From NCBI GenBank assembly GCA_002633005.1, contig NMRA01000064.1, forward strand, positions 186,001 to 250,000: 64,000 bases of DNA, read 5' to 3'. The DNA is from Phoronis australis (Eukaryota > Animalia > Phoronida). The notes under the pieces were generated by a model that did not search any database, was not told the DNA's origin, and saw only the letters and a program-made list of their open reading frames with translations. Positions within the stretch are counted from its first letter, which is position 1; each line of letters starts with the position of its first letter. A program made the position numbers and the translations under genes. Positions 1,246 to 62,616 of the stretch are shown here, one piece after another.

Positions 1246-1413
1246 ATCGTTTACATACCAATCCATGCAGTGAGAAGTTCCAAAAACTTATTTCCATATC
1301 CAAATAATGGTTCAAAAATGTTATTATACACGTGTGCATTGTAAGTTTGACGCGCGTCTTCGACATTTTTGTCGCGTGATCAAGTAAAAGCGAAGTCTGG
1401 CGCACATTATACA
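1246..1413. repeat. Dispersed repeat, copy 1 (direct repeat of 14795-14964)
   Basis: Collinear match with 14795-14964, including the exact block TTCAAAAATGTTATTATACACGTGTGCATT and CGCGTGATCAAGTAAA. Confidence 0.85.
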
Positions 1414-1490
1414 GAAGCCCTGATGATATAAATCTTTCCATGTCGCCAACCAAGAGAAGGGCTTCATGAAAACTAAAATGCAGTAAGGTT

Positions 1491-1866: not shown

Positions 1867-2350
1867 CTAGCCAAGAAGTTGATCATCAGGTATGAAACGT
1901 TCAAATACAGTATTAAGGGTCACGCGCGTTCCCAAAATAAATAAATTGCGTTCTTCACCACCGGAATCATCCGACGACTCGCTACACGAATAGTTTGCAT
2001 TCATGTTTCTCTTCATCCATTTCTTTACTGCTTTCTTTTCAACGCCCTCCTTTCGCTTCTGCCACTTTGCAACAACTTCCGCTTTCAATTCCTCTTCTCT
2101 CTGTTTTTGTAAAGCTTCCATTTCAACCTTAAATTCTCTTGCCACAATCGTTAAAATAAAAATTTGCCTATCATCCACGGCTGGAGTGGGTATTTGGTCA
2201 ACCATTCGCAGACATTGGTCGCATATTCCCAAAGCCCACGCGTGAAAAATCGCGGCTCCCAAGCTCAATCGATTTACTTCCTCGTCCGTGTACCTTAACA
2301 AGATCTCAAGAGCGCGTGCTGCTATTTCCGGGTGAAGGAATCTCACGCCA
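1867..2350 (-). CDS. C-terminal part of the large membrane protein (second half of MTBD-like domain plus basic/acidic tail), in the -1 frame relative to the 1974-aa ORF
   Basis: VRFLHPEIAARALEILLRYTDEEVNRLSLGAAIFHAWALGI continues the domain begun in the upstream ORF; compare the dynein stalk pattern V..xS.AA..L..WV. The frames switch at AAG TTT TTG GCG TGA. Confidence 0.75.
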
Positions 2351-5300
2351 AAAACTTTATGCGCATCAGCAACCCTGGATAGTCGCCCACGCGTATTGTG
2401 CAACAACGGTTCCTACAAACCAGCCAGTCAGATGTTATGTCTTCCGTGTCTCCAAGAATCAATAGCACAGCCTTCATCACATCGTGAACGCATACAGGAG
2501 GACATTTGTAACTCCTAATCTCCAACATCAAAGATCTGTCCAGCTCAAGAATTTTCACCTTTAAATTTTCTACACGTTCCATAGATTTGAGAGCGACTTT
2601 TGCGTTATCCATTTCAACTGAAACCCATTTTTCGCCACCCATTCGTAACAAACGATCAAGTACAATTTTCAAACGTCTATAGTCATGTTTTTTTATGGCC
2701 CGTGTCATGGCATTCCTTTCTCGAGCGACTGCCAGTACGTTTTCTGTTTCCTGTAGTAATACAGTGTCTCCAGTACCTATAACAGCTCTATGTCGATGAA
2801 CAAAATCAATGTACCTTTTTAGTGCATCCTCTATTGTCCTTTCGTTCAACGTTTCGTGGGCTGAGAGCAAATCTTCCTTGAGTTTCAACTCTCTTTCTTT
2901 TACACAATTATTGAATTGAATAGGATCATTCAGTATAGCGTTTGCTTTTTCCACGAGACTTCTGTGTTCGTCAGCGTCATAAGGTGATAAGTTACAAAAA
3001 TTCACATACTCTGCCAAAGCCTCCTTTATTTTATCGACGTCAGCAGTATCTATTGCTTGTCGGAGACGTTCAACGTATTCTTCTTTCTTTGCTTTAGAAA
3101 TAAATTCTTTAGCTTTCTTAACCAATTTATCATCAATTTTCAAATTGCGCTTAGCCATACATTGTGTATACGCACTTAAGGTCCCGATGATTTCATCGGC
3201 ATTGTCATTTTCGCTCATGTTTAATAGTTTTGTTTGAAGCGCCACAACGGGATCTTTCCTTTCTCGCTCCTTTTGACGTAATGTTTGCAGACAGTCATCC
3301 ACTAATGCCGAGTCTAGCTTGCAAATCTTTGGATGTGCTTTGCAATAATCCCGGTATGCTTGCAATCTCTCTTGAATTAAACTTTCATTACCAGCTTCGT
3401 TTCCCGAAACCAATAACTTATTTAAATGGTCACCTTCAGCTTTAATACGGTTTATCTCTGCTTCTTTCTTAAGTATCACATCCTTGGCACGAGAAACTAG
3501 AATCGAATCTAGGTGTAAAACGTCCGCGTGAGCTTCATGGAACCTCGTGTATCTGTCAAGCGGTTTCCGAACTTCGTCTATTGTCGAACACAGCACAGTT
3601 ATGGCGCGAACTAGACAGTCGCGTAGAACCTTGAACTTCTTTTCTTCTGGTGTTTGTCGATTTCTAAAGACTTTTTTGTAGCCATGTACTTCAATCTCTT
3701 CATTCGTAATGTTCGCATTATCTTCCTGTCTTTTCTCTGGTTCAGTAAGTGGTTCGGGTGTTTCTTCTGCCACGTCTTTTTGTAAAGTACACTGTTCCTT
3801 AGAATCGAATTCAGTACCTTCTTGCTCTTTGGTATCACTTCTAGCCAGTTGATTATCGACAGTTTCAGAAAGCTTGAAGCTAGTCTTTTGAAATGCAGCA
3901 GCCTCGCTCAATCCAAAATCTAGTTGATACGGACTTGCCTTAGTACTAGCGTCTTTTCGTGGTGAAATGTGCTTGAGTTCATGGGTGCTAATTCTTTCTT
4001 CAAGGTTTACTTCTCCAGAAGAGCTCGTGTGTTTATTAATCCAATCCGAGACCTTTCTAATTAAACTTTCGTCTCTTTTGAATTCTGGTAGATTTTTCTC
4101 TAAAAATAATTCATAATTATGAAGCGCCACCGTCACATCTTCAATGTGTGTTGCATCACTGCCGACCAGATCTTTCAATTTCCCTTTCAGATCCTCGTGC
4201 TCAACAATTTTGGACAACTTGGATAAAATGTTTTTAGAACAATTTATTAGTTGAAAGTCTTCTTTGAGTTCGTGCTGCCGATTCTGCCACAAAGAAACGT
4301 TCTTTGCAGCAGCCCTTTGCATCTCCAACGTATTGGTTTCCCAAAAATGAATATAGCTTGCTAATGTATCTGTAATTATGGGTTTGCTTAAAGTTTTGTT
4401 AGCCTCTTCGAGTTGTGCCGTCAATTCCTTCCCTTCACGAACGAGTTGAGAAAGTTTAGAATCTTGCTCGTCTTTTCTCAAGTCCCGTTTTTCCCGTTGC
4501 TCACTTACCGTACTCGATGTCGTGTTCTTTGTCGTGAACCCCTCAGTCATGTTAAGTTCTTCAGCACCCCCTTCGCCAGGGCGTGATTTCACCCTTGACG
4601 CTTTACTTTGTTCTTCTTTTCTACTTGCTTTTACCATTTCGTCATTGGCCTTACTAACATCCCCCACTACTCTTGGTGGTACGCTACACTCTCTGGTCTC
4701 CTTTACCTTTGCAAGGTCCACTTTAACTTGATTTGACTTAACCTTCTCTTCTTTATGTGAAGCAGATGCATCTTTTGGATGCTGCTTCCTTTTCTCTTGT
4801 ACTAACGTGCCGGGTGTATGCTTCTCTAACCAAGCCCTGGTCATGTTAACAAGGCGAATGTCTTCTTTAAATTTTTTCCTGTGTGTTTCAATAAACGTCT
4901 TATATCTCTGCAGGGCTTCTTCAACTTCTTTGGGTAATGTATCATAGTTACTAGTTAGTTCTTCTATTGTTGTCCTCAGTACCTCGTGATCGACATCTGA
5001 TTGGGAAACTGTCTCTCCCACCTCCTCATCCCCATCACTACCTTGGTGCCCTTCTTTTTTGTTTGATTCAACATTTCTGCCATTGACCGTAGCCTCTTCC
5101 ACCCCAAATTGTGATGGCTCGTAACACTGTTTGAATGCCATCACCTCTCCATGTTCCTCATTAGTTGGTTTTGATTCAGGTTTAACTTTTACAACTGAAG
5201 CAGGTGGGTCTTCTGGGTATGATTTCTTTTCGTCTTTTCCCGAAGTATCGCTTTTATGTTTCTGTAACCAGACTCTGACCTTTTCAATGAGCAACTTGTC

Positions 5301-8257
5301 TTCTTTAAATTTACCCGGGTGATTTGCAATAAATGAAAGATACCTTTTCAGACTTACTTCTACTTCTGTGGGAGACGTATCTTCGTCCTTCGTCAGTTCT
5401 TCAAGGATCGTCTTCAATCCCTCGTGATCGAAGGTTGACTGGGACAGTGTTTTGAACAAAAGTCTTTTAGAACGAGCTACAAGAGCAAAGTCTTCTTCAA
5501 GTTCGGTTTTATAATCCTGCCACGACATCCCTTGCCTTGGAGCTGCTCGCTGCATAACTGATTTATTTTTGTCTCTGAAGTTCAGATACTGTGTTAGCGC
5601 TATTGTAATAGCCGATTCATCTTGCTCCGTATTTGCTTTCTCTAATTTCGCCTTCAATTCTTTGTTTTGGTCCAATAGTTGATGAACGTTGCTGTCAGCA
5701 GAAAGCGCTTTCGTTCTTACCTTTTTAGTATGTTGATCACCTACCTGTAGATACGAATTTGCCTGTCCCTTTGATACGCTAAGCATAGGATTCTGAATCC
5801 AAAATGTGACCTTTTCAATGAGATTAGCATCTTCTTTAAACCTCCCTTTGTGTTTTTGAATAAAAGCTTTGTATTCTTCCAGTTTTAATTTAACTTCGCC
5901 TACTGGTGCCGTGTTATTTTCAATAAAGTCTTGCAGATTTAGCTCCAATGAAAGTTTAGATTTAATTTCAGACAAAAATTTCTTTGACCGAGCTACTAAC
6001 CCAGTATCTTGTTTAAGGTCATTCTTTTGGAATTCGCTTGACGAAGCATCCACTTCTCTCAGCGTCATTTTGTTCTGTTTCCAGAAATTAAGATATTGCG
6101 CAAGAGCTTCGCCTATAACATGCTCATCATGTTCTATGTTTGCTTTCTCCAGCTTAACCTTTAGATCCTTCCCTTGCTCTATGAGGTGAGCAACTTTGGC
6201 ACCATAGTTTGCACTTTCTGTATCAACAGCAACACTAAGCGATACACTCTCTTCTTGTTTTCGTGGTGGCCGCACTTTGCTGTTCTCGATGTCTTTAATG
6301 TGATGCGGCAAGGCTGAATCACTAGCTGCTGTGACATCAGTTTTACTAGAAATGCATCTCATGTTAGGGACCGTCGTATTTCCCTTTACCTTAACAGCTC
6401 GCCAGGGGGGCTCTTCGGAATCCGCCATTGTGTCTGTAAAGTAGTCCCTTGCTTCCGACGTCTTATCACTACTGGAACTAGGTGTTGTTTTGTTGAAACA
6501 GTGAAGGCCAGTTTCCCCAACAATTCCCCCGGAAGTTTTGTGCAAATCTTCACTGTAATGAAATGATGCTTCAGATGCATCTGTTTTGCCTCCACTTACT
6601 TCAGCTTGATTAGACGATTTCCCGTTTCCATCAATCGGTTTACTACTTGTGTGCCTTTGAAGCCATTGAGACGTTTTTTCAACAAGACTGGTGTCTTCTT
6701 CAAACTTATCTTTATGTATTGCAATGAATGCTTGATATTTCTCCAAAGCTAGCCTAACATAGTCAATTGTCGTGTTGTCGTCATCAAGTAAGTTTTGAAG
6801 ATTCATCTCTAACGTTAATCTGGATTTTATCGTTGATAGAAGCCTTTTCGAGCGCTTCACAAGCTCTGGATCTTGTTTGAGCTCTTCTTTACCGAATGTG
6901 CCGCATCGTTTAGCCTCCACATGCATGGAGAGTTCATTGAGCTGCCAGAAATTGAGATAATCTGTAAGTGCTTCACTGATAGCCAGTTCGTCTAAATCGT
7001 TGTTGGCTCTCAGGAGGTTCATCTTAAACTGCTTCCCTTGTGCTACGAGGTTGTGAAGTTGCAGATCACTAAGTGGTCGCGCATTCTCGTCTAACGCGCA
7101 TTCGCCCCCCGATAGCTGCAAGCCTGGAACAATAGTGACAGGAAACTCTCTAGATGCTGGAAGCTGAATTTTATTTTTCTCCAGTTCAATACGCTCATCT
7201 CTGTTATCACTGGTGTCTTTTGTTTCATCGAATTCATCATAATGCCGCGCATTGTTCATTTCTCTGCTGATTACTTGTTCCACGTCGTTCGTGTGTGAAT
7301 TTGATAGTGGATAATGTCTTTGTTCGGTCTCATCGTCTATGATGTCGATCTCTGAACAATTTTTGATTTTTGTCTCACAACCATCAACTAGGTCTTCGTC
7401 TCTTCTAACACGATCTTGATAGTTTGCTTTTGGTTTCGCTTGCAGGTCTCCTCCTTGGAGGCAAAACATTTGCTCATTATGTGATTGTAAGAACCTCCTT
7501 TCAGAATGTTTTTCAATCCACAAGGTGACTAATTGCAAAAGACCTTCATCTTTTGTAAACGTTTCTTTGTGTTTTGAAATCAATTCGTTGTACCTTTGCA
7601 AAGTCGTCTCCACTTCAGAAACAGGTGTATCGTCCACCATTATGAGTTCACGTAGTTGTGACTTCAGCAGAGAATGCTGCGTGTTTAAGGCTGATTGTAA
7701 ATCATTGAGTAGGTCCTTCGTTGCTTTAATGAGGCCAGCATCTTCTTCAAAACAATATCGTCCCTCTTGCCATTTGATACCTTCCTCTACAGCCATCTCT
7801 TGTATATTGAGTTTGTTTTCTTGCCAAAAGTTGCAGTACTGTTTTAAGGCTTCCGTGATAGTAAAACAATCTAGTTCACCATTCGCTTTCTTGAGCAATT
7901 CCTTCAGGTAATTCCCTTGCTCCATGAGATGTCGAAGTTTGATCTCGCGGAGAAACGTCCGCGCTTGATCAAGCAACTCTTGCACATTTCTATGGCTCTC
8001 CACATGCGTTTTGTGTTTCTCCAGACAAGCCTCTATCTTGTCCGCCTGTCTCGAAGAATGTGCCGCCTGCAGCTCCTGGACAAGACAGGCGTTGGTTCTT
8101 AAAACAGTTTCCAAAGCAGATTCTGGCGCTGTTGCTAATTTCTCCCTCATTTTACGTTGGTGCATATACCAGACGTATATAAAAGTGCCCCCCAGCAGAC
8201 ACAGGCCGACAGTACCAACAACAACCACGGCGATTATGGTCCCCGATTCACTGGAGG
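2343..8257 (-). CDS. Giant coding exon of an uncharacterised single-pass membrane protein with helical repeats and a dynein-MTBD-like C-terminus
   Basis: 5.9-kb stop-free ORF. TM helix IIAVVVVGTVGLCLLGGTFIYVWY is followed by basic HQRKMREK. Repeats of types Y.NFW..N and F..D..L...V..W..KH recur. LDRSLMLEIRSYKCPPVCVHDVMKAVLLILG...DW resembles the dynein MTBD (EIKS...PP..V..VM.AV..LLG...W). Acceptor gttatgttcacag|CC at 8258/8257. Confidence 0.9.
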
Positions 8258-9118
8258 CTGTGAACATAACGAGGCACTTTGAAGCTGGATTTTAGCCTGT
8301 TTACTGAGCACGCTAAATCGAATAACGAATGTTTCCTTTCATTCTCTTAAAATCGGACTCTCAATATTCCACTATCGTGTTAGGAATTCATTTCAATTAT
8401 TAACAAGAACACCGAAACACCCCCGAACTAAAAACAACATTTCAAGAATTTATTAAGGTTGGCCTGTGGCTTGAGTTGGTAACGGAAATAGATTCTTATC
8501 AAAGTGAGGAATATTATGAGACCGACTTTATGAGAGAAACTGGCCTAATGCCTAATTTCGTATTTTGCCATAAAGCTAAAAAGGGCGAAGTGCAACTCTA
8601 ACTGTAAAAATAAAAACATACCACACTTGTATAACCTACATTACTGAATCTAATTTATCGTGCACTAACACATCTAGGGTACCACAAGGCTAAGCCCGCA
8701 ACCAAAGTTTCCTGGGGAGAACTGCATACGTTTTTGGTCATGCCCGGAGCATCCCTAATTCTGCTTATGACGTGCTTGTTAAAATGCATCGGACCTTCTG
8801 CCACAGTTAGGTATGGTTTTGTTTCGTGCAAAAATAGATGGTTTCGTAAGAACAAAAAGTGGTACGCGGGAGAAGAAATGCAGTTCGTGAAAAAAGAATT
8901 AATTTGGTGACAACAAAACACGCAGTTTGTAAGGGAAGAAGATGTGTTCATATTGAAGTAATATGACACACGCTCTTGCAATAAAAACAGTGCGCAATTA
9001 CAGTTCATTGGCTTGCAACAGTCAAGCTTTCACTAAAAAATCTTAAATCATATCAATTCAAGTCAGCTAAGTTTAGTTTCGAGTAATCCAGTTAGTCTAG
9101 TTGAACCATTCTTCTCAC

Positions 9119-9176
9119 CTGGTTCTGTTGTTGCTGCAGGGATCGCTGTACCATTCAACGGGCTCCCAGCAGCCAT
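9119..9176 (-). CDS. First coding exon of the large membrane protein (MAAGSPLNGTAIPAATTEP)
   Basis: Acceptor tttttatttgcttag| at 9182/9181, ATG at 9176 in context GTCATGG, donor CAG|gtgaga at 9119/9118. Phase 1 matches the acceptor at 8257 (G|CC = Ala). Confidence 0.8.
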
Positions 9177-10782
9177 GACAACTAAGCAAATAAAAACGCA
9201 AGTTATAGTCAGCTGTATGCAAAATTTTCAAACTGTTACAGGCGTTTACGTCACATTAGGCCTACGGTGCATTACGCTAAAAAGAAATTTATAGATATTC
9301 TTTCAACTAACAAAAAGACAGTTAAACGAAGTTGAACGGCACAAATTGCACTGTCGTGTTTGTCAATGTCTGATGACGACCGTAACACTGCTATAGAACC
9401 GCTTTTCGTTATGAAATAAACTTCTACTTCAGACAAGTTACAGATATCAAATTGGTCTCAAAGTATTCCTTAGTCAGGTTAGAGGTGATTTTTTTTGGCT
9501 TGGAAAGAACATACTGTTAGTTATTGGTTTAGATAATGCTCCACAAGTTGGCTTGTCACGGCGACCCATTTTATGTCCTGAACATGGTCTCATGCAGTAA
9601 CGAAATGCCATTTTCTCACATGACCAGGACTGTTTAATAACACCGAGTACGTATTTTTATATTACATGGGCAAATCACAAAGTAATGCAATGTAGAAATC
9701 CATATGCCTTACATTTTATCGTCTGCAAAACACTAAAACAACCAAACGCGCGCCAACCAAACAATGCCGGAATTCCGAGACGGTGACAAGGTTATGATTG
9801 ACAAATCAGGTGTCGCAACTGTACGTACTCCCAGTCGGAAGGACATGCAAACAACTTTTTAAACGGACCCATCTCAGGGGCGGATTTATATGTAGGGGGG
9901 CCAGGGCAGAGTATTAGCCAGGGTTTGCCCGTCAGACATTGGCACCGCCGAACTGCCAAATGGAATGTGGGTGTTTTAGGGGGGGGGGGGGGNAAAAGCG
10001 TCAGAGTGTAACCTTTGTTGTGGATCTGAAATAATACTTGGCTTTTGCTTATTTTTTAAAATAAAGAGCTCGGAAAGCATTGGCTTTCGGTAAAATGCCT
10101 TGCGTCTCGTAAAATCGACAATTTCTAATTGTTATTTGCAATTCCAGGATTCTTAAGAAGAGACGTGTGACGTTTATAGTTTAATCGTCCCTGGTGACAC
10201 CTTTGTTAGTTATGATTTGTGAAATAATTTGAGATATTTACCAATACAAGCTGGTCCTTGTGTGAGACGGCGATCGGGAACGATGTCGTAAATTCTTTAT
10301 GGCGATGGTGAACGCACATGATTTTTTTTCTCTGAATCGACCTGAATAGTCGTTCAAGTTACGGTATTATGTCAATAATTTTAGAATAATACGGAAACTG
10401 AATTAGTTGGTGGGTTGGTTATTAATTACATTTCATCGTTTTTTCATTATTTCTAAGGAAGATTTAGCCTAACAAACATAAGTGAATGCGTTTGATTTTT
10501 TTCAGTTGAACTGTAGCCACACGAGTCCTTCAGGGTGATAACGTCCACGCCTCCTAGAAAGAGTAGTACAACTGCTGCATGTCACAACGGAGTGTGTGTG
10601 TGTGTGTTGTGGAGCCTTGTTAAGGAACTAAGAAATCGACTTAGTATGACCACATGGCAATAAAATACAGTGACACTACAACAAGGCAAGACCTTTACCA
10701 GCCCTTGCGTGCGTCAAGAGTTTTTTAGCAATATAATAAAACAGAGCATGTAGCATCGTGCTCAGGAACCAAGTCGATTCAG

Positions 10783-10936
10783 TGTCCTATCTGTGATCAA
10801 TGTCTCACGGAAAGAGTAAGCCTGATGCGACATTGCGTCACAGCAGGAGGACATTCCTTTTTGTGGTGAATGTGTCATGTCATGCAAACAGTATGCCTCC
10901 TTCTACAGGCATAGCAAGCAGAAACGTCATGAATGA
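10783..10936 (+). pseudogene. Decayed pair of C2H2 zinc fingers, probably a transposon-derived relic
   Basis: CPICDQCLTERVSLMRH...H and, after a frameshift, CGECVMSCKQYASFYRHSKQKRHE*; both have C-x2-C-x12-H spacing. Confidence 0.6.
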
Positions 10937-13102
10937 AATCATTAAGTCCAGTGGTAAAGGTTGTTAAGTCATTATAGGTTATTCAGATTTACAGAGTTTA
11001 TGGTTCGTAGTTGTCTGATGTGATAATATTTTGATGTTTTGTTTTGAACCTTTTTTCCTCAAGTTTCTTTCTATATTTGTGTTATTTCAAAAGGATCTTT
11101 TACAGAACCAGTACATTTATGTAGTGTTTAGGTAGATTTAAATGGCCATACTAAGTGTCATTGGGCAATACTTACATACAATTGTTCTGACCAATTAATA
11201 TCTTAAAAGAAAATATATGTCTTTGATTATTGTAGAAATTGCTTTCATATAGTTGTTGATTTCGTGTGACAGACTATTATACTATCAACCAGTCCTAAAT
11301 ACATTGTCTATGATTCAGTGATGGTTTAGTTTAATACATTCCAAAAGTACTTCGTTGGAAATGTTCAATGGATTTGTTATGTTGATTTCCCTAAAGCAAT
11401 AAATTTATATATTTTTGTAAGACCAATTTTGAAGTTCGTGTGATAAAAGATTAATATTATAATACAAATGCTATAGTATTGTTGATTTCCTGTGTAAATC
11501 ACTACAGTGTGTAGTTGAAGTGAGGTTAATGACAACATGTTGACTACGTTTTGAGAAAATCACAATATAGTATGTGTATTATAATTGTCTCAATCTTTTT
11601 CAATGTCACATTAAGCTGGAGATCATGAACTGATGATGCAAGTGAACTTCGGACCAAGACTACAACACAGAAGAGTCAAACACAACGTACATTCAAGCCA
11701 CACGAGTGCCACAAGTCAATCTGTTCATCTCTGTATCGATGTTATCAGTAAAACATTATGTAAAATCCCACCCACATGAGTTTACACAACTTCTTTCCAA
11801 TTTTTAGATTCCAGGCGTTTATGAGTGGGAATCTTTGAATCATTTCGTGAAGTGTTGCCGTACTCCCCTCTCTCCTCATGCCATGGGCAAGCTTATCATC
11901 ATTCTTAATTGACTTCACTGCTTTCACTGTTTTTTTTCCTTTTGCTGTCACAACTTTACAGGAAGATTCTACACTCGCTTTCATTTCGGTGCTGTAACAA
12001 TTTGTTTACACCTGGCTGACACGCCACATGGAACAACTCCTGGGTGAGTCTTCAGTTTAGAAACCCTTGTTCTCAGTAGTTTCCAGTCTCAAAGTAGATG
12101 CCTGTACTTTTCAAAACCCTGGTAGTGTGTACCTTTACGTCGTGGGTAACATGTTCGTTGAAGCTCGCCTCACAATAACAGTGAACTTGTTTCCTGAAAT
12201 GAAAATAAATTCGTTTGTGAAACTAAAATATTATGCTTGATGTACATGTAATGCTCATGGCAATTCAATGGAATATGCTATGTTGTTCAGTTTTGATACG
12301 AAAGTAACTCAGTAATGACACAAAATGTGATTAATTCATTGCACTACACTTATTTTGTATTCGCGTTTTATAAGTAAAAAGTTCATTACTGTTCGACACA
12401 CCACGATGCGTTCCCGATCGCATAAACAAACACAAATTTGCGTTCCCGATCGCTTATCGTTGCGTTCTCGATCGCATCTTTGAGCAGAAAAGCGTCGAAA
12501 AATCAGAGATCCTGACAAAACTAAAAAAAACAAGCGTTGCGTTATATTTTCACGCGTCATTTCTTCATAACTCCATGGTCAATTTATTGATTTAGCGCCA
12601 AAAATAACGGCAATTTGCCAAAATGACACACAAATCACCTTCGGCTTAAGCGATGCCTCGGTCAACGTAACTTTTCTCCTATTTTTGGAAGAGACACTAA
12701 CCTAAACCTCTACCTGCCCTTCCTCAATGTGTTACGCCTTGAAATCATGTCTCTGTTTTCACATTGGAAGTAAAAACAACGAAAATTCATCAAATTTACT
12801 CACCTTGCCTGGCTTCGCTTCCCGCGCCAAATTTTGTTCTCGATCGCGGGTTGGCCGGGGTGCCAAGTTGTAATATAACACCTTCAAAGACTATTCATTA
12901 GATTCTAACTTGCATATTTGCTACAAAAGCTGAATGCAATTTACATTTGCTAAGCTTAAAATAAACCTATTCACAAAAATAGCCGAATTACTTACATTGC
13001 GCAAGTGTGTTTTTACAAAAGTTGAGTCGTGTGGTTGAAAGTTTTAGACACGTCGAGTTTTTTAGCCAAAAAGATCGTTTTTACGGTTCTTGTGAGAAAA
13101 CA

Positions 13103-13228: not shown

Positions 13229-14794
13229 CTCTGTTTCTTTCCAAGTCACGAAATCATGAGTTAGGAATAAGGTCACTAATATAGCGGTATGCATTCGGAG
13301 TCAAAAGTTGGCGTCTTTGACGGAACGCGGGTTTTTGAGCCTTTAATCTGACTTGTTGGCTTCCACTTCGGCCGGGTACATCCTTGTTTTCAAAAACCCA
13401 TGGCATGTTGACAGTGTTTCATTTAGAAAATTGTTTTGTCATAATTAAGTTCATCTACATACATATTAAGAAAGATAATTGTATAACACAAACAAAGTAA
13501 AAAGATATAAAGTTAATAAATAATCTCGAAACTCATGAAAATAGTGAAAATTGAAATCGAACACCACAAAACCTATAACTAGTACCCCCTTCTGAATAAT
13601 CGAAGCGACGTAACTACCACCAATACTGCCCGACAGCTGTGGGCACGCATCTAGCTAGTCGGTGAACCAACCCCAGTATTGGCATGTAGCTAGCCAAAAT
13701 GACCTGTTGACATGGGAGCAAGCCTACGAAACGTACCGTGAATTTGTCATAGTACGGCGCGCCCCTGATGTCTATTTGGAAAACAGCAGATTTTACCTTT
13801 TTGGAACTCCAAAAGTAAGCGCGGGCAAATCCTTGGAAACGAGGAGCCTATGAACGGAAAATGTATCATAAAATTGATCGGGACGAGTGTTTGCCTTGCA
13901 AGCATATCCCTGAAAATGGCATAAAGATGAAAACCAGACATGTAAAACAGCCAACAAACCTGATGATTGACTATGCGTGTATAACTGTTTGTGATTGGCG
14001 GTCGTTGAGACTGGTCATTTTGGGACACCTTAAAAACTCCGAGAGTTGTTGGCACCAAAACTAGGCGCATATAACACTAAATTTGAAAACTCTCTGAATA
14101 TACGGAAAGGAAGTATAAGATGGCTGCAAGTTTCAACTCTCTCATATTCTCCACCAATGTCTCTCCCAACCGTTGCTAAATCTCCCACAGTCGTCTCTCG
14201 TCACTCATTCCCCTAGCTAGGCAGCTAGCTGTATAAAGACTAACGTAGGTCTACAGCTTTACACCAAGGCTATCATTCGCCCTACCGCTCCCCGGCCCGG
14301 TCACTGAATTCTCACTATCGGGTCATCGCCGACACACCTTATTCAGCTACTTAGCACTTAGTCAGTAAACTAACCCTTAAACAGGATTCTGTTAAAGAGC
14401 TGAGTATTGGCTACCCTGCCCAACCCCTGATCCTCATCATATTTTCCTCTCTTCCCTCTGTTCATCAGTCGTCAACAATCCTCTCTAATTAATTAGAAAC
14501 AAAATTATCCTGGATGAGGTCGACCTCAACCGCCAGTGGAATCTCATTGAAGGGACAACCCGATGAGGTGCGCTTGTTCTTAGTCGCACCTCACCTAATT
14601 GACTACATGGAACACATTTAACCTTCCAATCTTACATACACTGGGTTAACATTTTGAGTTAAAAGACAACAGAAAAAATAATATCTCAAGAAACTCCGAA
14701 TCTACATGCTGCCATTGACTATTTTCTGAAAAGAGCGCCTAAGGACCAGAACGTGAGCCCAATCACAAAATAAACAAATGAAATAAATAAAAGT

Positions 14795-14964
14795 ATCGTT
14801 TACGTACCAACCCATGCAATGAAAAGTTCCAAAAATAATTCCCATATCCGAATAATATTTCAAAAATGTTATTATACACGTGTGCATTCCAAGTTCCCCG
14901 CGCGCCTGAAGATATAATGTTGACGCGTGATCAAGTAAATGCGAAGCCTGCCGCACACTATACA
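14795..14964. repeat. Dispersed repeat, copy 2 (direct repeat of 1246-1413)
   Basis: Same blocks as copy 1; the spurious ORFs 1211..1453 and 14702..14965 share MHTCIITFL. Confidence 0.85.
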
Positions 14965-17599
14965 CAATTGGGCGACTTATCTCATCTCAAGATGACTAGG
15001 GTGTAATCTGCGAACTCAAACTCAGCCAACTCAGACTCAGACTCGAAACTTAACCAATCAATCACCACTGAACAACGTACTCTAGCACCACGGACCGCGG
15101 GCGTAAGTCAGTCGTAAACAACGGGCAACGCATAGGGAGCGTTTGACAATGGGGGAACGGGGTGCAGTGGACCTGCATGAACAGCATCAAACCGACGACA
15201 CCTGTTTCGTGGGGACTAAGCCTAAATAATGGAATTTCAAAAATGCAAGTATAAAGTAACACATTTCGAGACAACCTTTTATAGGTATATTAGTGTTTTC
15301 TAACACTACAAAAACAGTTCTATTTGCGAACGATAAAGTAACTAGGAAAATCGCGTGGTGACATTTTAGAATCTGAAAACATTCACCTGCAACATCCGCA
15401 GTTATATCATGAAACTTCATCACAGTTATAGGTAGACAGTTGCTAAAGAGAAGCAATGCTATTACCGGTAAAGTTGCAGCAGTGAGGGATGTTTCACGGA
15501 AATGCGGGAAAAATTCACGTAACAAAAACAAAAAAAAATCCTGCAGGGAGCATTTATCAGAAACGTATTGGATGCTAATGCCTAGACTAAAAACCTGCGG
15601 AACAGGTTTAGAATACTTTAAAGGCATTAGAATTATGAAACAATATAGATGTGCACAATTTCATTTGAGGTTTGTGCAAGGTAGACGTGAAGGTGTTGGT
15701 CGTGCTCTAAAACGTTGGCCTTCTATTAATTTAAACTCAGTGGAATCTAATTCATTTTGGCAGTTTTTCCACTATACTTTGGAAAAAGACGAAGACGTCA
15801 ACCATTTGTTGCGGATACGACTGAAGAGAGCTTTAAAAGACTTATGATGTTTAAAAACTTGAATAGTGAATTATTATACGAGGTGTATTTTTTTGAAATA
15901 CACTGTAAATAAATTTATATCAGAATCAATCCTAAAGCACAAATGGCTTTTCTCGACAACTTCCACCTTGTATTCTGTCCTTCGGGCGAGTGCCTTTACG
16001 GGATTTGGTATAAAGCCATGTAAGTAAAAGAATCAGAAAAGACACCTAAGGCAGGCGCTTTTTCGGGAAAATCATCTGCAAGTTATTTTCATTGGGAAGG
16101 GGGGGGGGGGGCTCAATTACAGAAAGTCATTGCACTGGAAAAGCGTAATAAGCTCAATATTACCTTCTCTCTCGCGGTTGTTTAAATTGCTTACAAACTG
16201 GCGTTCATAACGTTATGAGGTTTTGAATCAAAATTTGTTTTTTTCGACGGAAAGCGGGTTTCTAGAAACTTCAAATAAAACGAGAATAAACGATAAACCA
16301 CGAGATGTGCCCACTTGACCAGGCCTTTGTGGCAGGGGTCCATTTTATCGGAGATCACTTAGATGGCAATAAAGTGTCAATGGCCTCAACGTGTTCGTAG
16401 AAAAATGACAATTTTGTTAAAACTAGAAAATCTAGTCTACTTTCAATCCCAGACAATTCAAAACCAATCAAAATAGTTCAAGAAACAAGATTCGTTAACT
16501 TTAATGAAGTGAAGGCAGTTTGCATGTGGAGTGAAAACTTATCAAGATTACATGACAACGCTTTCGCTCTTCTAACGTATCGTGCAACCTACTTACGATC
16601 GTCCTATCTACGATCTGACTTACAATCTCATGACACTGGTCCCATGAATGTGAAAATCGTCCCCATCTCTGACTTATACTTGATCACAAATACGATACAT
16701 TCAGGGAAACAGAAAGCGCACACTTTGGCAGGGACGTCTTTAAAATAATGTTCGTTTCCCTTCCCCCTATCATAACTCCTATGGAATGCTGATCGATTGG
16801 TAAAAGCCTTTATTTTATACGTTTCGTTGTTATTACGCACTCATTTTTATTACAAAAATAATAGCTTTGTTCTTACAATTGACAAAACATTCTTCAAATA
16901 GCAAGTAAAACATTTTGAGAAGAGCTTGTATTTTACAGTCGCGCGGGGGGAAAGACAGGCAAGTAAGACGACTAAGAAAGAATTAAGGTGCAAAAAATCC
17001 TCATTGTCGTTTACTATGCTGGTGTGCTACGATTTGAAAAATTAAACATAGCTATTTTATCTTAAATACCATTTTTAAATATCTGTCAAGTATAGGTAAG
17101 CCGGAAATGCATGGCACTTAGATATGTACATTGCTCTTCAAACTAAACCCATGTTTCTGAAACAGTGAATTGCTGTCTAAAAAGAGACACAATCAGTTTT
17201 AGGCTGAAAAACGCATTGTTGAGGTTACTTTTGTATGGGGCAAATTTTCATGTTATTATCCTTGAGATGTTAAGCAACAAAATCCGTTGCGTTTTAGTGA
17301 TTTCGGTAATTCAAATCACCAATTGTCACTACTGGCTCTCACTCATTTGCTGCGCTAGCAAAACATAGGACTGAAACCACGGAGGTCGTATATTCGAATC
17401 CGTCTTGGAAGTGATATCATAAGACATTGTCTCTCCGGGCTGCTGGCCATCAGTCCTAACCTTTCGTTTTGTAATAGCCCAAACCATTATCAAATTAAAG
17501 ATTCCTGCTTAAGAAACCTACAAAAAAAATGATTACCACTTGGTCAAACTACTTGCCAAAACTAGGCTCGCAAAGCAAAGCAGTTAGTTAAATTTTCTT

Positions 17600-44324: not shown

Positions 44325-45794
44325 GATATTCTCGCACAGATCACCAGCGGCCAGTCTTTGAAGGACATTCCTAACTCGACCAAGGAGGCTTTCTATGACT
44401 GGTACCACCAACAAGTGAACAAGTCACATGCCTCTCCCTGCTCCAAGGAATCCTCACCTGATAACTGTTTACAGCTCTCTTACCCTACTGTTGCCCACAT
44501 TCTGAACTCTCGCAAGACGCCCACACTGTCACATGGGTTGCCACGGACACGGCCACGCACGTCCTTTGACCCTGACCACGAGATTCCTCGTCTCAACCAT
44601 TGGTTTCAGCAGAACCAGCATCCGTCACGCTACCAGATGATGCAATACCTTGAAGAGTTGAACTTGCATGAGACAAGGCGTGGCCGACTGCGCAAACCTC
44701 TAGACCTTCTCAATATCATACATTGGTTCAAAAATGCTCGGGCCGCCGTTCGTAAGGGAATCAAAGTCTTAGATAGTGCGGAGGACGGGGAAACAAACTC
44801 TGGTAAGAAAAATTCTGGTGATAATTGGGAGAGCGGGGAAAAAAGCGACATTCCTGAGCTGCCTAATAAAAATGCTGTGTATATTATTAGCAAGCCGAAC
44901 AGGGACCATGTGGACTATGAGGAGGGATGTAGTGAGAGTGAGGAGGATGAATCTGGGGAAGAGGATGAAGAGTTAGAACCGGAAGACCTGTCTTTGCCAA
45001 AACGCATGTCAAGTAGCGAGCAATCTCAAGAAAACGAATCTAGCAAAACATCAGAACTAAGTGAAGCATGTAAAAGAGGGAGCAGTGGGAGTGAGGACAG
45101 CCCAGCCAAGAAAATCAAAACAGAAAACTCTGACGAATCGGGAACTAATAGTAAATTAAATGAAATAAAAACGGAGAATCTAGAAAATGAAAGTGAAGTC
45201 TGTTCTGAAAGTGGCACTTCGTCTGGGGATAGAAATAACTCACCAGCCCACACAAGTGCGGGACAGACACCCTCACTCATGGTTCCCATGTACTCTGTAC
45301 CCTATCCTGTTGGCATTTACCCGGGCATGGGACTACACCCCATGTCCCCACACTTCTACGGGACGCAGTTCGCAAACACACAACACTCATTGGGAATGAC
45401 GCCCCTCGACATGAGCCGCTACACAAGCGGTGGCGCTCCGAAGCTGTCAAAACCGCAGGTGTCGCCGACGAACGATTCCGACTCCAATGAGAATCTGTCG
45501 AGAGAGGAGAAACGACGGCGACACCGCGTGTTCATCGACCCAGTGACAGAGATTCCATTACTGGAACACTGGTTCAATCAGGAAACACATCCACCACATT
45601 ATGTTATTGAGAAATACTGTGAAGAGCTGAATAAGTTGGAGTATCGCCAGCGCTACCCCAAGCTGAATCCGAAAAATGTGCAACTGTGGTTCAAAAACCA
45701 CCGGGCCAAGGTCAAGCGGCTACGTTTAGGTCAGGCTCTGAACCTGAACCACAATGGCATCAGCGTTCTTAATATTCCACCCACTGCAGTTTAA
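44325..45794 (+). CDS. dve: dve/SATB-like gene, terminal exon 6A (end of CUTL-like domain plus two K50 homeodomains); isoform A is 703 aa
   Basis: cattgtag|GAT ATT; HD1 RPRTSFDPDHEIPRLNHWF...HWFKNARA and HD2 RHRVFIDPVTEIPLLEHWF...LWFKNHRA, both with the Dve-type insertion between helices 2 and 3. Exon lengths sum to 2112 nt. Confidence 0.95.
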   Translation, partial: DILAQITSGQSLKDIPNSTKEAFYDWYHQQVNKSHASPCSKESSPDNCLQLSYPTVAHILNSRKTPTLSHGLPRTRPRTSFDPDHEIPRLNHWFQQNQHPSRYQMMQYLEELNLHETRRGRLRKPLDLLNIIHWFKNARAAVRKGIKVLDSAEDGETNSGKKNSGDNWESGEKSDIPELPNKNAVYIISKPNRDHVDYEEGCSESEEDESGEEDEELEPEDLSLPKRMSSSEQSQENESSKTSELSEACKRGSSGSEDSPAKKIKTENSDESGTNSKLNEIKTENLENESEVCSESGTSSGDRNNSPAHTSAGQTPSLMVPMYSVPYPVGIYPGMGLHPMSPHFYGTQFANTQHSLGMTPLDMSRYTSGGAPKLSKPQVSPTNDSDSNENLSREEKRRRHRVFIDPVTEIPLLEHWFNQETHPPHYVIEKYCEELNKLEYRQRYPKLNPKNVQLWFKNHRAKVKRLRLGQALNLNHNGISVLNIPPTAV

Positions 45795-51774: not shown

Positions 51775-52421
51775 GTAATGATAAGCCTGACTGACCTATT
51801 TCATGTTACTTCCTCAATAAGTTTGTATATTCCTGCAGTCGATAAGAAGGAGAAGACTGTTTATCAGAGAATCTGACGATCCCATACTCATGAGTGCCCA
51901 GTAAGATTTTCACACTTCGTGTGGATGCATTCGTTGAAAAATGCCCTTTAGCTAATACTTGTTTGAAAAACGATCACATCAGTTATATCAGTTTAAAATA
52001 TATAAATGCCCAGGTTATTCATTTGAGTAAACAAAGTTGTTTGCATAGAAGTCAATTATGAGTTTAACATTGGTCAATGACTCTATATTGGTCACCAGGG
52101 TAGTTTTATTTGTTATTATCTCAACTGAACTCTTGGTTTTGGCCCCCCAAAAATGCACAAGCCCTAACACATCCCGTTTTGATGCTAATGAAAATATTTC
52201 CTGCAGACGCCTATGCTAAAATTTCGAAAACTGACTTCCTTCAGATAACCACTTGCATTGCCATACATACCAAAAATTATATCACTTTCCTATCCTCAGT
52301 CAAGTACATGAATGCATCTTGTCAATACATGTTTCCAGAACTGCAACCAAAGTTTTTAAATTTAGTCAAATAATGTATTTGTCCTAAAGCTGGAGTTTGT
52401 GTGAGGTACATGTTTTTACAG

Positions 52422-53008
52422 GGAACCAGTTTCAAGAGGGCGCTCCTAGAGATAGCAGATTGACCTTCCACTCAACTGCTGAAATTCCCCAGATGCGCAG
52501 ATGGTATCAGAGCTGTAAAAACCCTTCTGACGACAATTTTCAGTGGTTTGCAGATGAGCTTAACAAGGGTTCTGCCCGTCAGCAACGAATACCAGTGACT
52601 GCTAACAAGCTCAAAATATGGTGGAAAAATGAGAAGCAGAGGGAAAAAAGACTGGGTCTCCAGAAAACAGAGACTGCTTACATCCCTAGGAAAAGGGTTT
52701 CCAGGAGCAGGCAAAAGAGGGAGACACAATCTCAGAGACTGCTAAATTTGTCACCAAGTAAGAAAGGAGAAACCCATAAATCTCCTGATCATGCAAGTAC
52801 CAGTGAAGTGATGTTGAACAATCCTAAGCTCACACGGAGTGGTGGAGCATCTCTTTATACTAGCCAATCACTTGTGACTTCCACTCCCCTTCAAACAGAT
52901 AGTTTCATTGGCGAAGGAAAAGAAATAATAGATTCAGAAAGTGAGGACATCATGCTACCGGCAGATGATGCCATTTCAGAAGATGAGTACTTAGATCCTC
53001 ATAGTTGA
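52422..53008 (+). CDS. dve/SATB-like gene, alternative terminal exon 7B (single atypical homeodomain); isoform B is 447 aa
   Basis: gtttttacag|GG AAC, phase 1; SRLTFHSTAEIPQMRRWY...NPS...ADELN...LKIWWKNEKQREKR aligns with HD1 and HD2 of exon 6A. Confidence 0.85.
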
Positions 53009-56346: not shown

Positions 56347-57294
56347 TTACACATCATAGTTGTCTTTAAGATAGTCGATGACAGCTGCCATACTAGTCAA
56401 ATTATTGAATATCCGTTTTTCAGGTTTTGACATGATCCTGCTTAGCATGTCCATTAGATGATGGTGAAAGCATGGAAAAGGTGTCCCATATGAAGTGGCA
56501 ATATCTAACCACTTTCTCACACACTCAATAGGAGTCTCTGTGTATCCAGCATACATTGCAGGGTTTTCTAGAAGTCCTCTGGCAGCCATTACTCCTTTTG
56601 CACCAGTTTTCTCACAAACAGAACCTACATCATCCAGCAATTTTATGTCACCGTTAGCAACAACAGGTATAGTAACGCTATCACAAATCATTTTGATTGC
56701 ATCTAAATGAACTGGTGTTTTACGTTCAGAAGGTGTCCTTCCGTGTACTGTGATCCAATTAACACCCGCCTTCTCAACTTTCCGGCACATGTCAACAGTT
56801 TTAACGACATCACTGTGAATACGAATCTTAATAGACGTTGCAAAGTCACAGTCGTCAACACGATTTCTCACTTGTCTCATAATGTCGTGTATAAGTTCTG
56901 GTTGTTTAATAAGACAAGAACCATACCCTTCTTGCATGGCCCACCTCTGTGGGCAGCCGCAGTTCAGATCAACACCATCCGCAAACTTACTAACCATCTG
57001 AGCCGCATCTGCCATGTCCGTGGCATTATTGGCTGCAAACTGAACCACCAGGGGTCTATCTGTAGCATTAGTAGTGAAATCATTGTCTCTTGCTTTTAAT
57101 GATCGCACAAAAGAGTTGGCAATAATCATAGGCGTGAAGGCCAAGTCGCAATCATATTGTCGCACAAGATGGCGGAACGCTAGCTTTGAATATCGAACCA
57201 TAGGAGCAGCCATTTTGACAGGTCTGTCCAGTTCTTGAAACATCTGTATTGGTGTCTTGAAGTAGAACACCTCTGGTTCATCTCTGAGATCCAT
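56347..57294 (-). CDS. DUS4L: tRNA-dihydrouridine(20a/20b) synthase [NAD(P)+]-like
   Basis: Complete 315-aa ORF with APMVRYSKLAFR, TPMI, DRPLVVQFAAN, catalytic DLNCGCPQRWA, ITVHGRT, VANGD and GVMAARGLLENP. Acceptor ctacttttag| lies 10 nt upstream of the ATG. Confidence 0.96.
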   Translation of the reverse strand: MDLRDEPEVFYFKTPIQMFQELDRPVKMAAPMVRYSKLAFRHLVRQYDCDLAFTPMIIANSFVRSLKARDNDFTTNATDRPLVVQFAANNATDMADAAQMVSKFADGVDLNCGCPQRWAMQEGYGSCLIKQPELIHDIMRQVRNRVDDCDFATSIKIRIHSDVVKTVDMCRKVEKAGVNWITVHGRTPSERKTPVHLDAIKMICDSVTIPVVANGDIKLLDDVGSVCEKTGAKGVMAARGLLENPAMYAGYTETPIECVRKWLDIATSYGTPFPCFHHHLMDMLSRIMSKPEKRIFNNLTSMAAVIDYLKDNYDV

Positions 57295-57484
57295 AGTGGT
57301 TAATCTAAAAGTAGAGAAATTTAGTGCAACTTACTTTTAAAAGTAAAATTGAGTAGTAGCATCACTTAATATTTACAAATGAATTCTAAGAACCAATTAA
57401 TAAAATTCTATTCCAAAAAAATTAAACTGACCACAAGAAACTACCAGCATGGCCACTTTCCGTGACTTCCTCTCAAGTGCAGAG

Positions 57485-57810
57485 TCCTACAGCAGTGTTA
57501 TGGAGTGGGTCCTTGTGTCCTACAGCAGTGTTATGGAGTGGGCCCATGTGTCCTACAGCAGTGTTATGGAGTGGGCCCTTGTGTCCTACAGTAGCGTTAT
57601 GGAGTGGGCCCTTGTGTCCTACGGCAGTGTTATGGAGTGGGCCCTTGTGTCCTACAGCAGTGTTATGGAGTGGGCCCTTGTGTCCTACAGCAGTGTTACG
57701 GAGTGGGCCCTTGTGTCCTACAGTAGTGTTATGGAGTGGGCCCTTGTGTCCTACAACAGTGTTATGGAAAGGGCCCTTTTGTCCTACAGCAGTTTTACGG
57801 AGTGGACCCT
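57485..57810. repeat. Minisatellite, 33-bp unit, about 10 copies (in the presumed DUS4L 5' UTR intron)
   Basis: gtcctacagcagtgttatggagtgggcccttgt repeated. Confidence 0.95.
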
Positions 57811-58486
57811 TCAGGCCTTTATCCAGGAATTTGAAAATAGGGTGTCCAAAATGGGGTTCCCAATATTCCAGGTCATCCATGATTCCGACGCGTAACCCTC
57901 CACCCCCAGGACCATTCACCAGCAATCCCCCACAAAAATGCGTAGACCAAGGATTTTACATCAAACTTTACAAAAAAGCCTTCTGTAGAGAGCTTTTTTA
58001 CTAAAAAAAACTGTGTAGACTAAGACCTTACATCTAAATTTAAGTAAAAAGCCAAGTAGCTTACCAAAGAAATATTAGAGATATTGGTTAAAGGATGAGA
58101 GCACTATGTTTTTGGTGATCTCTAGTCAAATTGTTGTTATAAAGGTTGTCATATCATTTTAATTAGCTTTAATATTCTGTAAAATGAATCATCAGAGCTG
58201 CAGTTACAAAACAAGAAAAATGCACGTATGATGTGTGATTTATAGTTTGGCAACAGGTGTCACTGCTGTTCCATATTAAAGCCCTAAAACGCACATTGAA
58301 AAGCATGAAATGGGCACTAGTTCAAAAAAATTAAATGAGCATATTCTTTTGGAACAATATTTTATTAACATAATGACATTTATTTCATTTTGATGTTTTT
58401 AAAGATGAAAATCATGAAGTTACATCTCTGAAACAACAGTATGGAGTCGCACTAAGACATGAACCCTAAATATACGTATATACATA

Positions 58487-60013: not shown

Positions 60014-60865
60014 GTAAACCGCTTCAGTGCTGATATTTAATTACCGCGGTGCTCGTCTAGACTTGTTTCTGATTGAATTGCTCTGGTAACTGAACATTAC
60101 AGGAACACTCAACACTCATTGATTGGCAATAGAATACACTCCGCTATCGCACGGAGTTCTGAGGACATCACTGCTGTTTTCAGTATTTATTGGAAATGGG
60201 TGTTACCCCACGGTTAATTTTGGGCATTTTGCCTCAATTAGCATGTAATTTATTGGCTATTTTATTTAAGCTTAATTGTATTGTTGTATTTGTCAAACTA
60301 GTCAGATATAGTTCATTGATTGTATTTAAAATTGCTATAACTTAATCATTTCTTGTCATAGAATTAGAATCATAAATTTGGTGACCACATGCAGTCATAA
60401 CAATTCTTCTATGGTGTGAGTTTTAACATATAATCTGTTATTTTTAGAATATTGACTGTTGAAATTGAAATTTTTTTTGCTGACTTATGCATTGTCGCAA
60501 TCCTAACACATTCATCACCAACACAATTGCAATGAGATGCGAATCGACTATTTCTTGACTCACAGTCTATGGTCTGTTAGTAACTCACGCACCCCAATTT
60601 AACCAGCTTATCAAATCAACAATTTCCCAGAGGTTATGACTTTTAATATCATACTTTATGTCTAAATTTCGTAATGTTTCTTTGATGTCACGCTCATGAA
60701 TTATTTCTCAAGATTCACAACAGGTTCAGTCATTTGGGGATGGATTTGCAAAAAGTTTTTCAATAGCTTGCTAATGTTTTTGTTATCAAGATTTGATTTT
60801 TGGTTTGGAAATTTGTTTTGACTTGGCAGATTGCTGATAGACCTGCATAATGCAAATTTAGCGGC

Positions 60866-61697
60866 CAGTACCAGACTAACCTGTTGTTGGAGACAGTTGG
60901 AATTTAGCAGCACCAGACTAACCTGTTGTTGGAGACAGTTGGAATTTAGCAGCACCAGACTAACCTGTTGTTAGAGTCAGTTGGAGTTTAGTAGTACCAG
61001 ACTAAACTGTTGTTGGAGCCAGTTGAAATTTAGTAGTATCAGACTAACCTGTTGTTGGAGGCAGTTGGAATTTAGTAGTACCAGACTAACCTGTTGTTGG
61101 AGCCAGTTGGAATTTAGTAGTACTAGACTAACCTGTTGTTGGAGACAGTTGGAATTTAGCAGTACCAGGCTAACCTGTTGTTGGAGACAGTTGGAATTGA
61201 GCAGCACCAGACTAACCTGTTGTTGGAGACAGTTGGAATTGAGTAGTACCAGACTAACCTGTTGTTGGAGTCAGTTGGAGTTTAGTAGTACCAGACTAAA
61301 CTGTTGTTGGAGCCAGTTGAAATTTAGTAGTACCAGACTAACCTGTTGTTGGAGCCAATTGGAATTTAGTAGTACCAGACTAACCTGTTGTTGGAGACAG
61401 TTGGAATTTAGCAGTACCAGGCTAACCTGTTGTTGGAGACAGTTGGAATTGAGTAGTACCAGACTAACCTGTTGTTGAAGCCAGTCGAAATTTAGTTGTA
61501 CTACTGTTGTTGGAGCCAGTTGGAATTTAGTAGTACCAGACTAACCTGTTGTTGGAGCCAGTTGGAATTTAGTAGTACTAGACTAACCTGTTGTTGGAGC
61601 CAGTTGGAATTAAGTAGTACCGGACTAGCCTGTTGTTGGAGCAATTTGAAATTTAGTAGTACCAGACTAACCTGTTGTTGGAGACAGTTGGAATTTA
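60866..61697. repeat. Minisatellite, 42-bp unit, about 19 copies
   Basis: accagactaacctgttgttggagacagttggaatttagtagt repeated with variants. Confidence 0.95.
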
Positions 61698-61999
61698 AAA
61701 GTGGACCAGAATTTAGTGTAGGTACCACCCATGGTTGCGACAACACTCAAATTATGTTTATGGAGATTTTTATTACTAGATTGTGCATTTATAACATTTT
61801 GATGAAGGATAGTGTATTACTCGATACTAAACAAAATATAGGGAACCTGAAATTTCATTGCATACCAGTGATTATTTATGTTGGACTGATTATGCAAAGT
61901 AATGGTTCAGAAATTTTGTGTATTCACGGTGTATTCATGGTGCAGGTTAATGAATGAAAAATAAATGTAGCCAATTAAGCTTAAAAGAAGAATTGTAAG

Positions 62000-62301: not shown

Positions 62302-62616
62302 TTGTTGTTCTTCATGGTAGCTTAAACAACTTATGCTGTTATTGTCTCACTGATGTGAAAATAATCTTGTTGCCTTGGTAAGAGATTAAAGTGGTTAAAT
62401 TGTTCATTTTGAAAAGCATGATAGGAGCTTGTGCTGTTGAAGAAAAATAAGATCATGCATTCAATAATTTTTTGACTTGTCAGTTCAAGTCTTGGACAAG
62501 TTGGATTTTTGGTTACAATACCACTGGGCAGGAGTATGAGGGTTTTGGAAGATTTTAAATCTGCCTTTGGTTTGTAGTTTTCATCAGACAGTATCTCCAC
62601 TATCCAAACCGTGTCA

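Follow-up and report, generated by a model that had tools for sequence, protein, structure and literature searches.

The locus at positions 1867 to 9176 of the window, by which we mean the whole 64,000-nucleotide (nt) stretch of Phoronis australis contig NMRA01000064.1 that was analysed and to which all coordinates refer, raises the question of what a long protein with a transmembrane (TM) helix and helical repeats might do with a tail resembling dynein's stalk-tip microtubule-binding domain (MTBD). The gene, on the minus strand, is spliced and expressed, and its product is a protein without a motor; its C-terminal domain is a homologue of the dynein MTBD, made up of the MTBD plus short CC1 and CC2 stubs. 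Based on sequence and modelled structure, we propose that the protein is a putative passive membrane-to-microtubule tether, a reading to which we assign a probability of roughly 55%. Its C-terminal end is organized as follows.

2550..2720, minus strand: helical hairpin of the family and short CC1-like stalk stub (residues 1866-1922, from the alignment and a homologue model)
2227..2549, minus strand: dynein-MTBD-like domain (residues 1923-2030)
2350..2354, minus strand: 1-nt frameshift in a homopolymer A-run inside the MTBD, where RNA reads are one base longer
1867..2226, minus strand: C-terminal tail (residues 2031-2149), with a CC2-like helix, a charged helical stretch and the stop codon

The initial annotation had read a likeness to the dynein stalk tip from C-terminal motifs that fall within residues 1923-2030 (2227-2549), and profile and Foldseek comparisons of the kind it called for, the latter with a homologue model, both matched. 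With a family profile of 32 rows (30 short homologues and two window pieces), the PDB sequences retrieved included the yeast dynein MTBD (6KJN) at an expectation value (E) of 3.4e-11, DNAH6 (E 6e-10) and mouse dynein-1 (E 8e-9), and the best-ranked 32 of 41 PDB rows were dynein chains by name or size. The window domain, with an X at the break, matched a profile built without window rows at E 1.5e-51. The N-terminal half of the MTBD alone retrieved 11 PDB rows with E<=10, 10 of them dynein chains (the lowest E being 0.16). The eleventh, 9fqr_Hl, is a chain of 4,583 amino acids (aa) that carries a radial spoke label but has a match like that of DNAH10. The C-terminal half alone matched designed helical proteins only. 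The fold was modelled on the nearest homologue, P0002 of the annelid Ridgeia (AlphaFold2, pLDDT 94). Against dynein stalk heads this model gave a best Foldseek E of 4.4e-4, with a TM-score of 0.76 by target to 6RZB, and it aligned (VIA-align) with 5AYH at Z 17.0 and a root-mean-square deviation (rmsd) of 3.1 over 145 residues and with 3ERR at Z 16.9, the best clearly unrelated fold being PhoU at Z 8.1. It covers 145 of the 254 residues of 5AYH (3262-3409), and a helical hairpin upstream replaces the long stalk.

The helical fold is thus the one seen in the dynein stalk tip (PF12777 centre; 6KIO, 6KJN, 6RZB, 3ERR, 5AYH and 8I3J), with which the domain also shares a Pro pair after helix H1, the Trp of H3, an H6 ending in Ser-x-Trp, short flanking antiparallel helices and the tubulin-contact residues of H1 and H6. 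What dynein has and the window protein lacks is the AAA ring, the linker, the tail and a stalk of the full 15 nm; helical repeats and a TM helix are present instead, the canonical H3 contacts are absent, and identity in the structural alignments of the homologue is 17-20%. As had been annotated, AAA motor motifs are missing: Pfam showed no AAA or dynein family in either window piece (E<=1). The 2,149 aa are accounted for by the TM helix, repeats and linkers, and the one Walker-A-like match, at residue 571, falls in a low-complexity linker. PF12777 likewise went unmatched by both window pieces, between which the frameshift splits the domain. In the ESM Atlas, the MTBD-like module occurs in unnamed mollusc-rich clusters, with PF12777 clusters as structural neighbours. 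Among solved structures, the MTBD-like fold was also matched by chain L of PDB 9YA2 (Toxoplasma intraconoidal microtubule; Z 9.2 over 125 residues), chain I of 7JRJ (Z 7.1 over 74 residues) and chain C of 7JTK (Foldseek E 0.035), the latter two from the Chlamydomonas radial spoke. These three chains may be non-motor MTBD-like domains, and thus a precedent in print.

We then consider the gene that encodes this domain, which lies in animal-type genomic DNA (GC content of the window ~0.38) and has the following parts.

14808..14967, minus strand: candidate non-coding 5' exon, with a GT donor at 14807; an 81% copy of 1216-1416
9119..9181, minus strand: first coding exon (residues 1-19), Thr/Pro/Ala-rich, with an NGT sequon at residue 8
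8258..9118, minus strand: intron of 861 nt (GT..AG); joint 8257/9119 in six X5 and three X6 RNA reads
1867..8257, minus strand: second coding exon, 6.4 kilobases, residue 20 to stop
8166..8237, minus strand: single predicted TM helix (residues 27-50, from hydropathy), with a basic stretch after it
1259..1416, minus strand: second version of the candidate 5' exon (81% identical), followed by a separate GT donor at 1258

The RNA evidence came from raw-read runs carrying the same species label, of which X5, X6 and X7 were mapped; X1 is a DNA run. Coverage extended throughout the coding exon in two of the three RNA runs, at depths of 2.5-30 (X5) and 0.8-24 (X6) with the intron near zero, and RNA depth continued to ~1580, in the 3' untranslated region. 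First mates lay solely on the plus strand over the coding exon (stranded reads). In X7, 3 of 30 bins were covered, all outside the coding exons. An in-frame variant of the splice joint, 8254/9119, differing by 3 nt, was present in four X5 reads. From the ATG at 9176, a 58-nt coding exon (9119-9176) is followed by a single 6.4-kilobase exon ending at the stop at 1867. An RNA joint links 9181 to an exon end resembling that at 1259, and the exon at 14808..14967 is probably joined to 9181 as the 5' exon of the gene. If it is, an in-frame stop lies upstream of the ATG at 9176 and no in-frame ATG precedes it, so that 9176 is the likely start and the protein has no signal peptide, in keeping with the short, signal-less N-terminus bearing an NGT sequon (at residue 8) of the initial annotation. 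The two 81% identical non-coding exon copies, at 1216-1416 and 14768-14967, retain their GT donors and flank the gene, suggesting a tandem array, in which 1259..1416 is the probable first exon of a paralogue with coding exons to the left of the window. In addition, a diverged expressed paralogue is suggested by roughly doubled DNA contig depth over the MTBD region and by loose-ended RNA reads, at 2660, 3124, 3669, 4432 and 4471.

Within the window, the coding sequence does not stay open from start to stop: it is divided by a deletion of 1 nt into pieces of 1,990 and 160 aa, seen on the minus strand as frames of 1,982 codons (8291-2343) and 181 codons (2412-1867). Among the best-supported 40 of 225 differences between reads and window, the extra base was found in RNA as two variants, in 13 + 13 of 26-28 X5 reads and 17 + 6 of 25 X6 reads. 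Since RNA reads carry the missing base, the species makes an intact transcript and encodes an intact protein. The product of about 2,150 aa proposed earlier therefore stands at 2,149 aa (~245 kDa) with the RNA-supported base, though not as a reading of the window sequence itself. A mini-intron or a programmed frameshift at 2350 was ruled out, as the RNA reads are just one base longer and have no joint there.

The long helical-repeat region that had been noted upstream of the tail resolves into five full and one half repeat of ~150 aa, 36-49% identical to unit 4 and separated by charged linkers of low hydrophobicity (20-140 aa), followed by shorter degenerate units.

7488..7961, minus strand: repeat unit 1 (residues 119-276)
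6633..7079, minus strand: repeat unit 2 (residues 413-561)
5775..6218, minus strand: repeat unit 3 (residues 700-847)
5244..5711, minus strand: repeat unit 4 (residues 869-1024)
4806..5015, minus strand: half repeat, second half only (residues ~1101-1170)
4017..4478, minus strand: repeat unit 5 (residues 1280-1433)
2721..3650, minus strand: about five degenerate helical units of ~55 aa (residues 1556-1865)

The degenerate units gave weak matches to a half-repeat profile, with E values of 2e-4 to 0.04 within this one protein. AlphaFold predicted six helices for unit 4 (pLDDT 87, pTM 0.63). The closest comparison of this model, with beta-spectrin, reached Z 8.9 at an rmsd of 9.2, in the range of common helical arrangements and not diagnostic; Pfam found no spectrin repeat in either window piece, Foldseek no structure at E<=1e-3, the PDB sequence search nothing below E 0.12 and the ESM Atlas no usable match. 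Searches with residues 1500-1982 and 690-1030 against targets of 1,090-3,469 aa returned no full-length relative, which is weak evidence as these searches were crowded or limited by length, and the repeat alignment found no relative among proteins of 278-2,000 aa. An origin of the repeats from the ~55-aa hairpins of the family was unsupported: the profile-profile probability was 1.7%, and none of 150 homologues scored above 10 bits, equal to shuffled and reversed controls.

At the other end of the protein, residues 1-26 are rich in Thr, Pro, Ala and Ser and contain no basic and two acidic residues (net charge -2). Residues 27-50 form the sole strongly hydrophobic stretch, with a 19-residue Kyte-Doolittle mean of up to 2.39 compared with 1.26 for the next-best region, and the 15 residues that follow contain four basic and two acidic residues, in agreement with the single TM helix followed by basic residues described in the initial annotation. 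Hydropathy and charge fit an N-out, type III insertion, the topology predicted there; it is favoured because of the charge bias and because homologues carry the same tail behind a signal peptide, an ectodomain and a TM helix.

These homologues belong to an invertebrate family in which no motor was found. With the last 185 residues before the break as query, 180 homologous proteins were matched at E<=1e-3 among 1.84 billion representatives; 150 of these were listed, and the 50 of at least 250 aa among them were scanned for domains. No dynein motor family was present in any of the 50 (Pfam scan), and PF12777 was matched in five at E<=1e-3 and in two past the gathering cut-off. KY Ig-like domains occurred in 20 of the 50, mostly with a transglutaminase-like core, bearing out the statement of the initial annotation that KY/hillarin-like proteins of invertebrates have similar tails; EF-hands were found in one and VWA domains in two. 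Among the members that have names are proteins of annelids and molluscs, of one brachiopod, one tunicate and one sponge, and of amphioxus, and a 356-aa abalone member has been auto-named 'cytoplasmic dynein 2 heavy chain 1-like'. A strong TM helix lies upstream of the domain in 4 of the 50, behind CLCA/VWA or VWA ectodomains in two of them, which places the tail in the cytoplasm, and a myristoylation-like N-terminus, scored by a sequence pattern with no background rate, was found in 12. Two of the TM members are from amphioxus, a CLCA-like protein annotated in two assemblies and a multi-pass protein; the others are a VWA protein of Styela and P0019. These recurring membrane anchors are the best contextual support for a tether and for a cytoplasmic tail.

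Two of these proteins, the amphioxus CLCA-like P0047 (XP_078700756.1 and XP_019614282.1) and the tunicate VWA protein P0064 (XP_077966891.1), are type I proteins with an MTBD-like cytoplasmic tail and could possibly be surface receptors wired to microtubules. In another member, P0124 (937 aa), five dynein-MTBD repeats that are almost identical come after a CFAP97/Hemingway-like N-terminus, again without a motor. We also found that 69 of 163 domain matches end at one place, just before the H3 Trp, suggesting a conserved intron; the window gene has no intron at that place. A quick tree using 58 of 164 domains left the window domain unplaced.

In KY (kyphoscoliosis peptidase)/hillarin-like proteins (PF01841 + PF23265), the same terminal hairpin and MTBD-like tail are present, and several of the rows nearest to the window domain by path, in an unresolved tree, are KY-like proteins of annelids, molluscs and a brachiopod. 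Unlike in these, the Pfam scan of the window protein showed neither a transglutaminase-like nor a KY Ig-like domain, and its TM helix replaces the myristoylation-like start found in 10 of the 20 KY/hillarin-like homologues. The TM-anchored relatives (XP_078700756.1/XP_019614282.1, Styela XP_077966891.1, CAH1240778.1 and P0019) have their anchor upstream of hairpins and the MTBD-like tail, and P0019 matches the window protein in layout: short N-terminus, TM helix, basic stretch, helical repeats and MTBD. These uncharacterised entries resemble the window protein in the tail alone (P0019: E 5e-14 over 97 aa), and as they lie elsewhere in the tree, the membrane anchors may have been gained separately. 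Single-pass proteins that tie membranes to the cytoskeleton include CLIMP-63 and the nesprins, the latter acting through long three-helix repeats. To our knowledge, neither uses a dynein-type MTBD, and no sequence relationship of the window protein to them was found.

If the protein is a tether, its TM helix would be a type III anchor inserted N-out, with ~2,100 residues on the cytoplasmic side; the repeats would be three-helix bundles in pairs which, strung together by low-complexity linkers, make up a flexible spacer; and the MTBD would dock on the tubulin dimer via H1 and H6, as in dynein. Because the stalk is reduced to a short stub and an AAA ring that could shift the registry of the coiled coil is missing, affinity would not be switched by ATP and binding would be static or tuned otherwise. 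The protein would then hold or space the membrane against microtubules and would not move it.

The residues by which dynein contacts tubulin bear directly on this proposal. The yeast MTBD forms six salt bridges with tubulin, through K3117, E3122 and R3124 of H1, R3152 and R3159 of H3 and R3201 of H6; mutation of each basic residue among these lowers affinity more than twofold, K3116 is dispensable, and the H1 Glu, the sole acidic residue on the tubulin-facing surface, pairs with R402 of alpha-tubulin (PMC7042235). An H1 quadruple mutant serves as a weak-binding dynein (PMC4046564), and the mouse equivalents of the contact residues have been described (PMC4987762, PMC6629372); we numbered mouse residues by counting on the alignments, where E3378 and R3382 land, as they should, on Glu and Arg. 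At the equivalents of K3117, E3122, R3124 and R3201, the residues of the window protein are R, E, R and R, so that four of the six contacts are kept, and a D at the K3116 site, likewise found in DNAH6. Its H3 arginines stand at W+4 and W+6, in the middle of the helix, where they might stand in for the canonical pair like the alternative basic contacts in H3 of Dictyostelium (PMC7042235). At the interface, the window domain is more dynein-like than most of its relatives. Of 157 domains of the family, 154 retain the H1 Glu and 142 the K/R after it; the H6 site is K/R in 11 of 65, and the residues of the fold (both Trp, the Pro pair and the H6 Ser) are retained.

Several observations weigh against a tether. 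The canonical H3 pair, R3152 and R3159, is L and C/T in the window protein, and the net charge of the domain is -1. Most relatives have D (77/157) and Q (89/157) in place of the H1 lysine pair, and all four H1/H6 contacts are kept in just 6 of 63 complete domains; judged from these residues, tubulin binding may have been lost as the family drifted. The branch of the window domain is long (1.49), and its retained contacts could therefore be due to chance. The structure compared is a model of a homologue 38-48% identical to the window protein and not of the protein itself. Finally, the window haplotype is frameshifted ahead of H5-H6, and at seven sites listed within 2103-2284 the window is contradicted by all RNA reads; those that restore the frame may therefore stem from a paralogue or a different allele.

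The last of these points leads to the possibility, which we consider less likely than not, that the window copy is a real null allele or a decaying tandem paralogue yielding a 1,990-aa protein cut inside the MTBD, with the working protein coming from the other allele or a sister copy; for the intact gene this is compatible with the tether. The inserted base at 2352 accounts for 41.3 of an X1 contig depth of 85.1, the remainder being listed without the insertion, and X1 contigs divide about equally over 2103-2248, a span in which every RNA read departs from the window. Over 1873-2454, the MTBD region, DNA contig depth is ~2x, and a 5' exon copy is present at 1259-1416. Decay is opposed by the 1,970 upstream codons that contain no stop and by the 148 of 451 X5 reads that are at least 99% identical to the stretch; moreover, what is lost at the break is one base of a homopolymer count, and the window is also short of one A at 8889 against the full X1 depth, pointing to assembly error.

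As for the intact protein, the main rival to the tether is that the MTBD fold has been repurposed, such that the tip of a membrane-anchored spacer binds a non-tubulin partner (a septin, a component of the actin cortex or a light-chain-like protein), which we consider somewhat unlikely. The family-wide loss of the H1 lysine pair and the H6 arginine while fold residues are retained speaks for such reuse, as do the 20 KY/hillarin-like proteins among the 50 long homologues, hillarin being reported to act through septins (PMC3081291), and one dynein MTBD also binds light chain 1 (6L4P). However, the near-invariant H1 Glu, the partner of alpha-tubulin R402, and the K/R next to it (154 and 142 of 157) speak for tubulin, and the window domain retains all four H1/H6 contacts.

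A ciliary or sperm-related role, suggested in the initial annotation, gained no support from any analysis, and a linker between the ciliary or sperm-flagellar membrane and the axoneme appears improbable. Expression does seem restricted, with two of three RNA runs covering the gene and X7 not, and axonemal DNAH6 ranks second to yeast dynein among the profile matches; but the X7 blank is uninformative, cytoplasmic dynein MTBDs match at least equally well, and no ciliary gene neighbours were seen in the window. A reversed, type II (N-in) topology, in which the repeats and MTBD-like domain would form an extracellular or luminal rod with no role at microtubules, is very improbable: a signal-less N-terminal hydrophobic helix can serve as a type II signal anchor and the C-terminal part has 16 N-glycosylation sequons, but this number is within chance (12.2 +/- 3.4 in shuffles), the charge runs the other way (0+/2- ahead of the helix, 4+/2- after it), and in homologues the tail either follows a signal peptide, an ectodomain and a TM helix or belongs to a cytosolic protein with a predicted lipid anchor.

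Elsewhere in the window, a dihydrouridine synthase is encoded at 56347-57330, minus strand (Pfam Dus, E 1e-68), in a single intronless frame of 327 codons; the gene studied here is near-intronless too. Atypical homeodomain frames lie at 44325-45794 and 52388-53008, both plus strand (Pfam Homeodomain, E 2e-10 and 0.002), the former with two homeodomain-like segments and, we presume, a resemblance to defective proventriculus/SATB-type genes. The sequence at 10740-10940, plus strand, reads by eye like two C2H2 zinc-finger remnants, and minisatellites at 57484-57811, 60855-61710 and 61995-62302 (offsets of ~66, 42 and 54 nt) produce spurious long frames.

In the papers cited on the dynein MTBD (PMC7042235, PMC4046564, PMC4987762, PMC6629372), the domain figures only as a motor's foot, switched by ATP. 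Full-text searches of the literature, in which most subscription papers were not covered, showed no account of a dynein MTBD lacking its motor, whether in animals generally or attached to KY/hillarin proteins, and 'MTBD-like' stood beside 'dynein' in two papers on TTLL11 only. This locus contributes an expressed, TM-anchored form and the recurrence of membrane anchors across the family. We suggest tentatively, at a little less than even odds, that invertebrates possess a large undescribed family of motor-less dynein MTBDs, repeatedly membrane-anchored and acting as static tethers between membranes and microtubules, of which the window protein would be a long-spacer member that sets the distance between the two. 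If the tether proposal is true, a free-standing MTBD on a membrane anchor would be a new form of membrane-microtubule coupling, and a motor-less MTBD would offer a natural test of how the domain behaves without control by stalk registry. The shared tail would also give the poorly understood cortical KY/hillarin proteins a testable link to microtubules.

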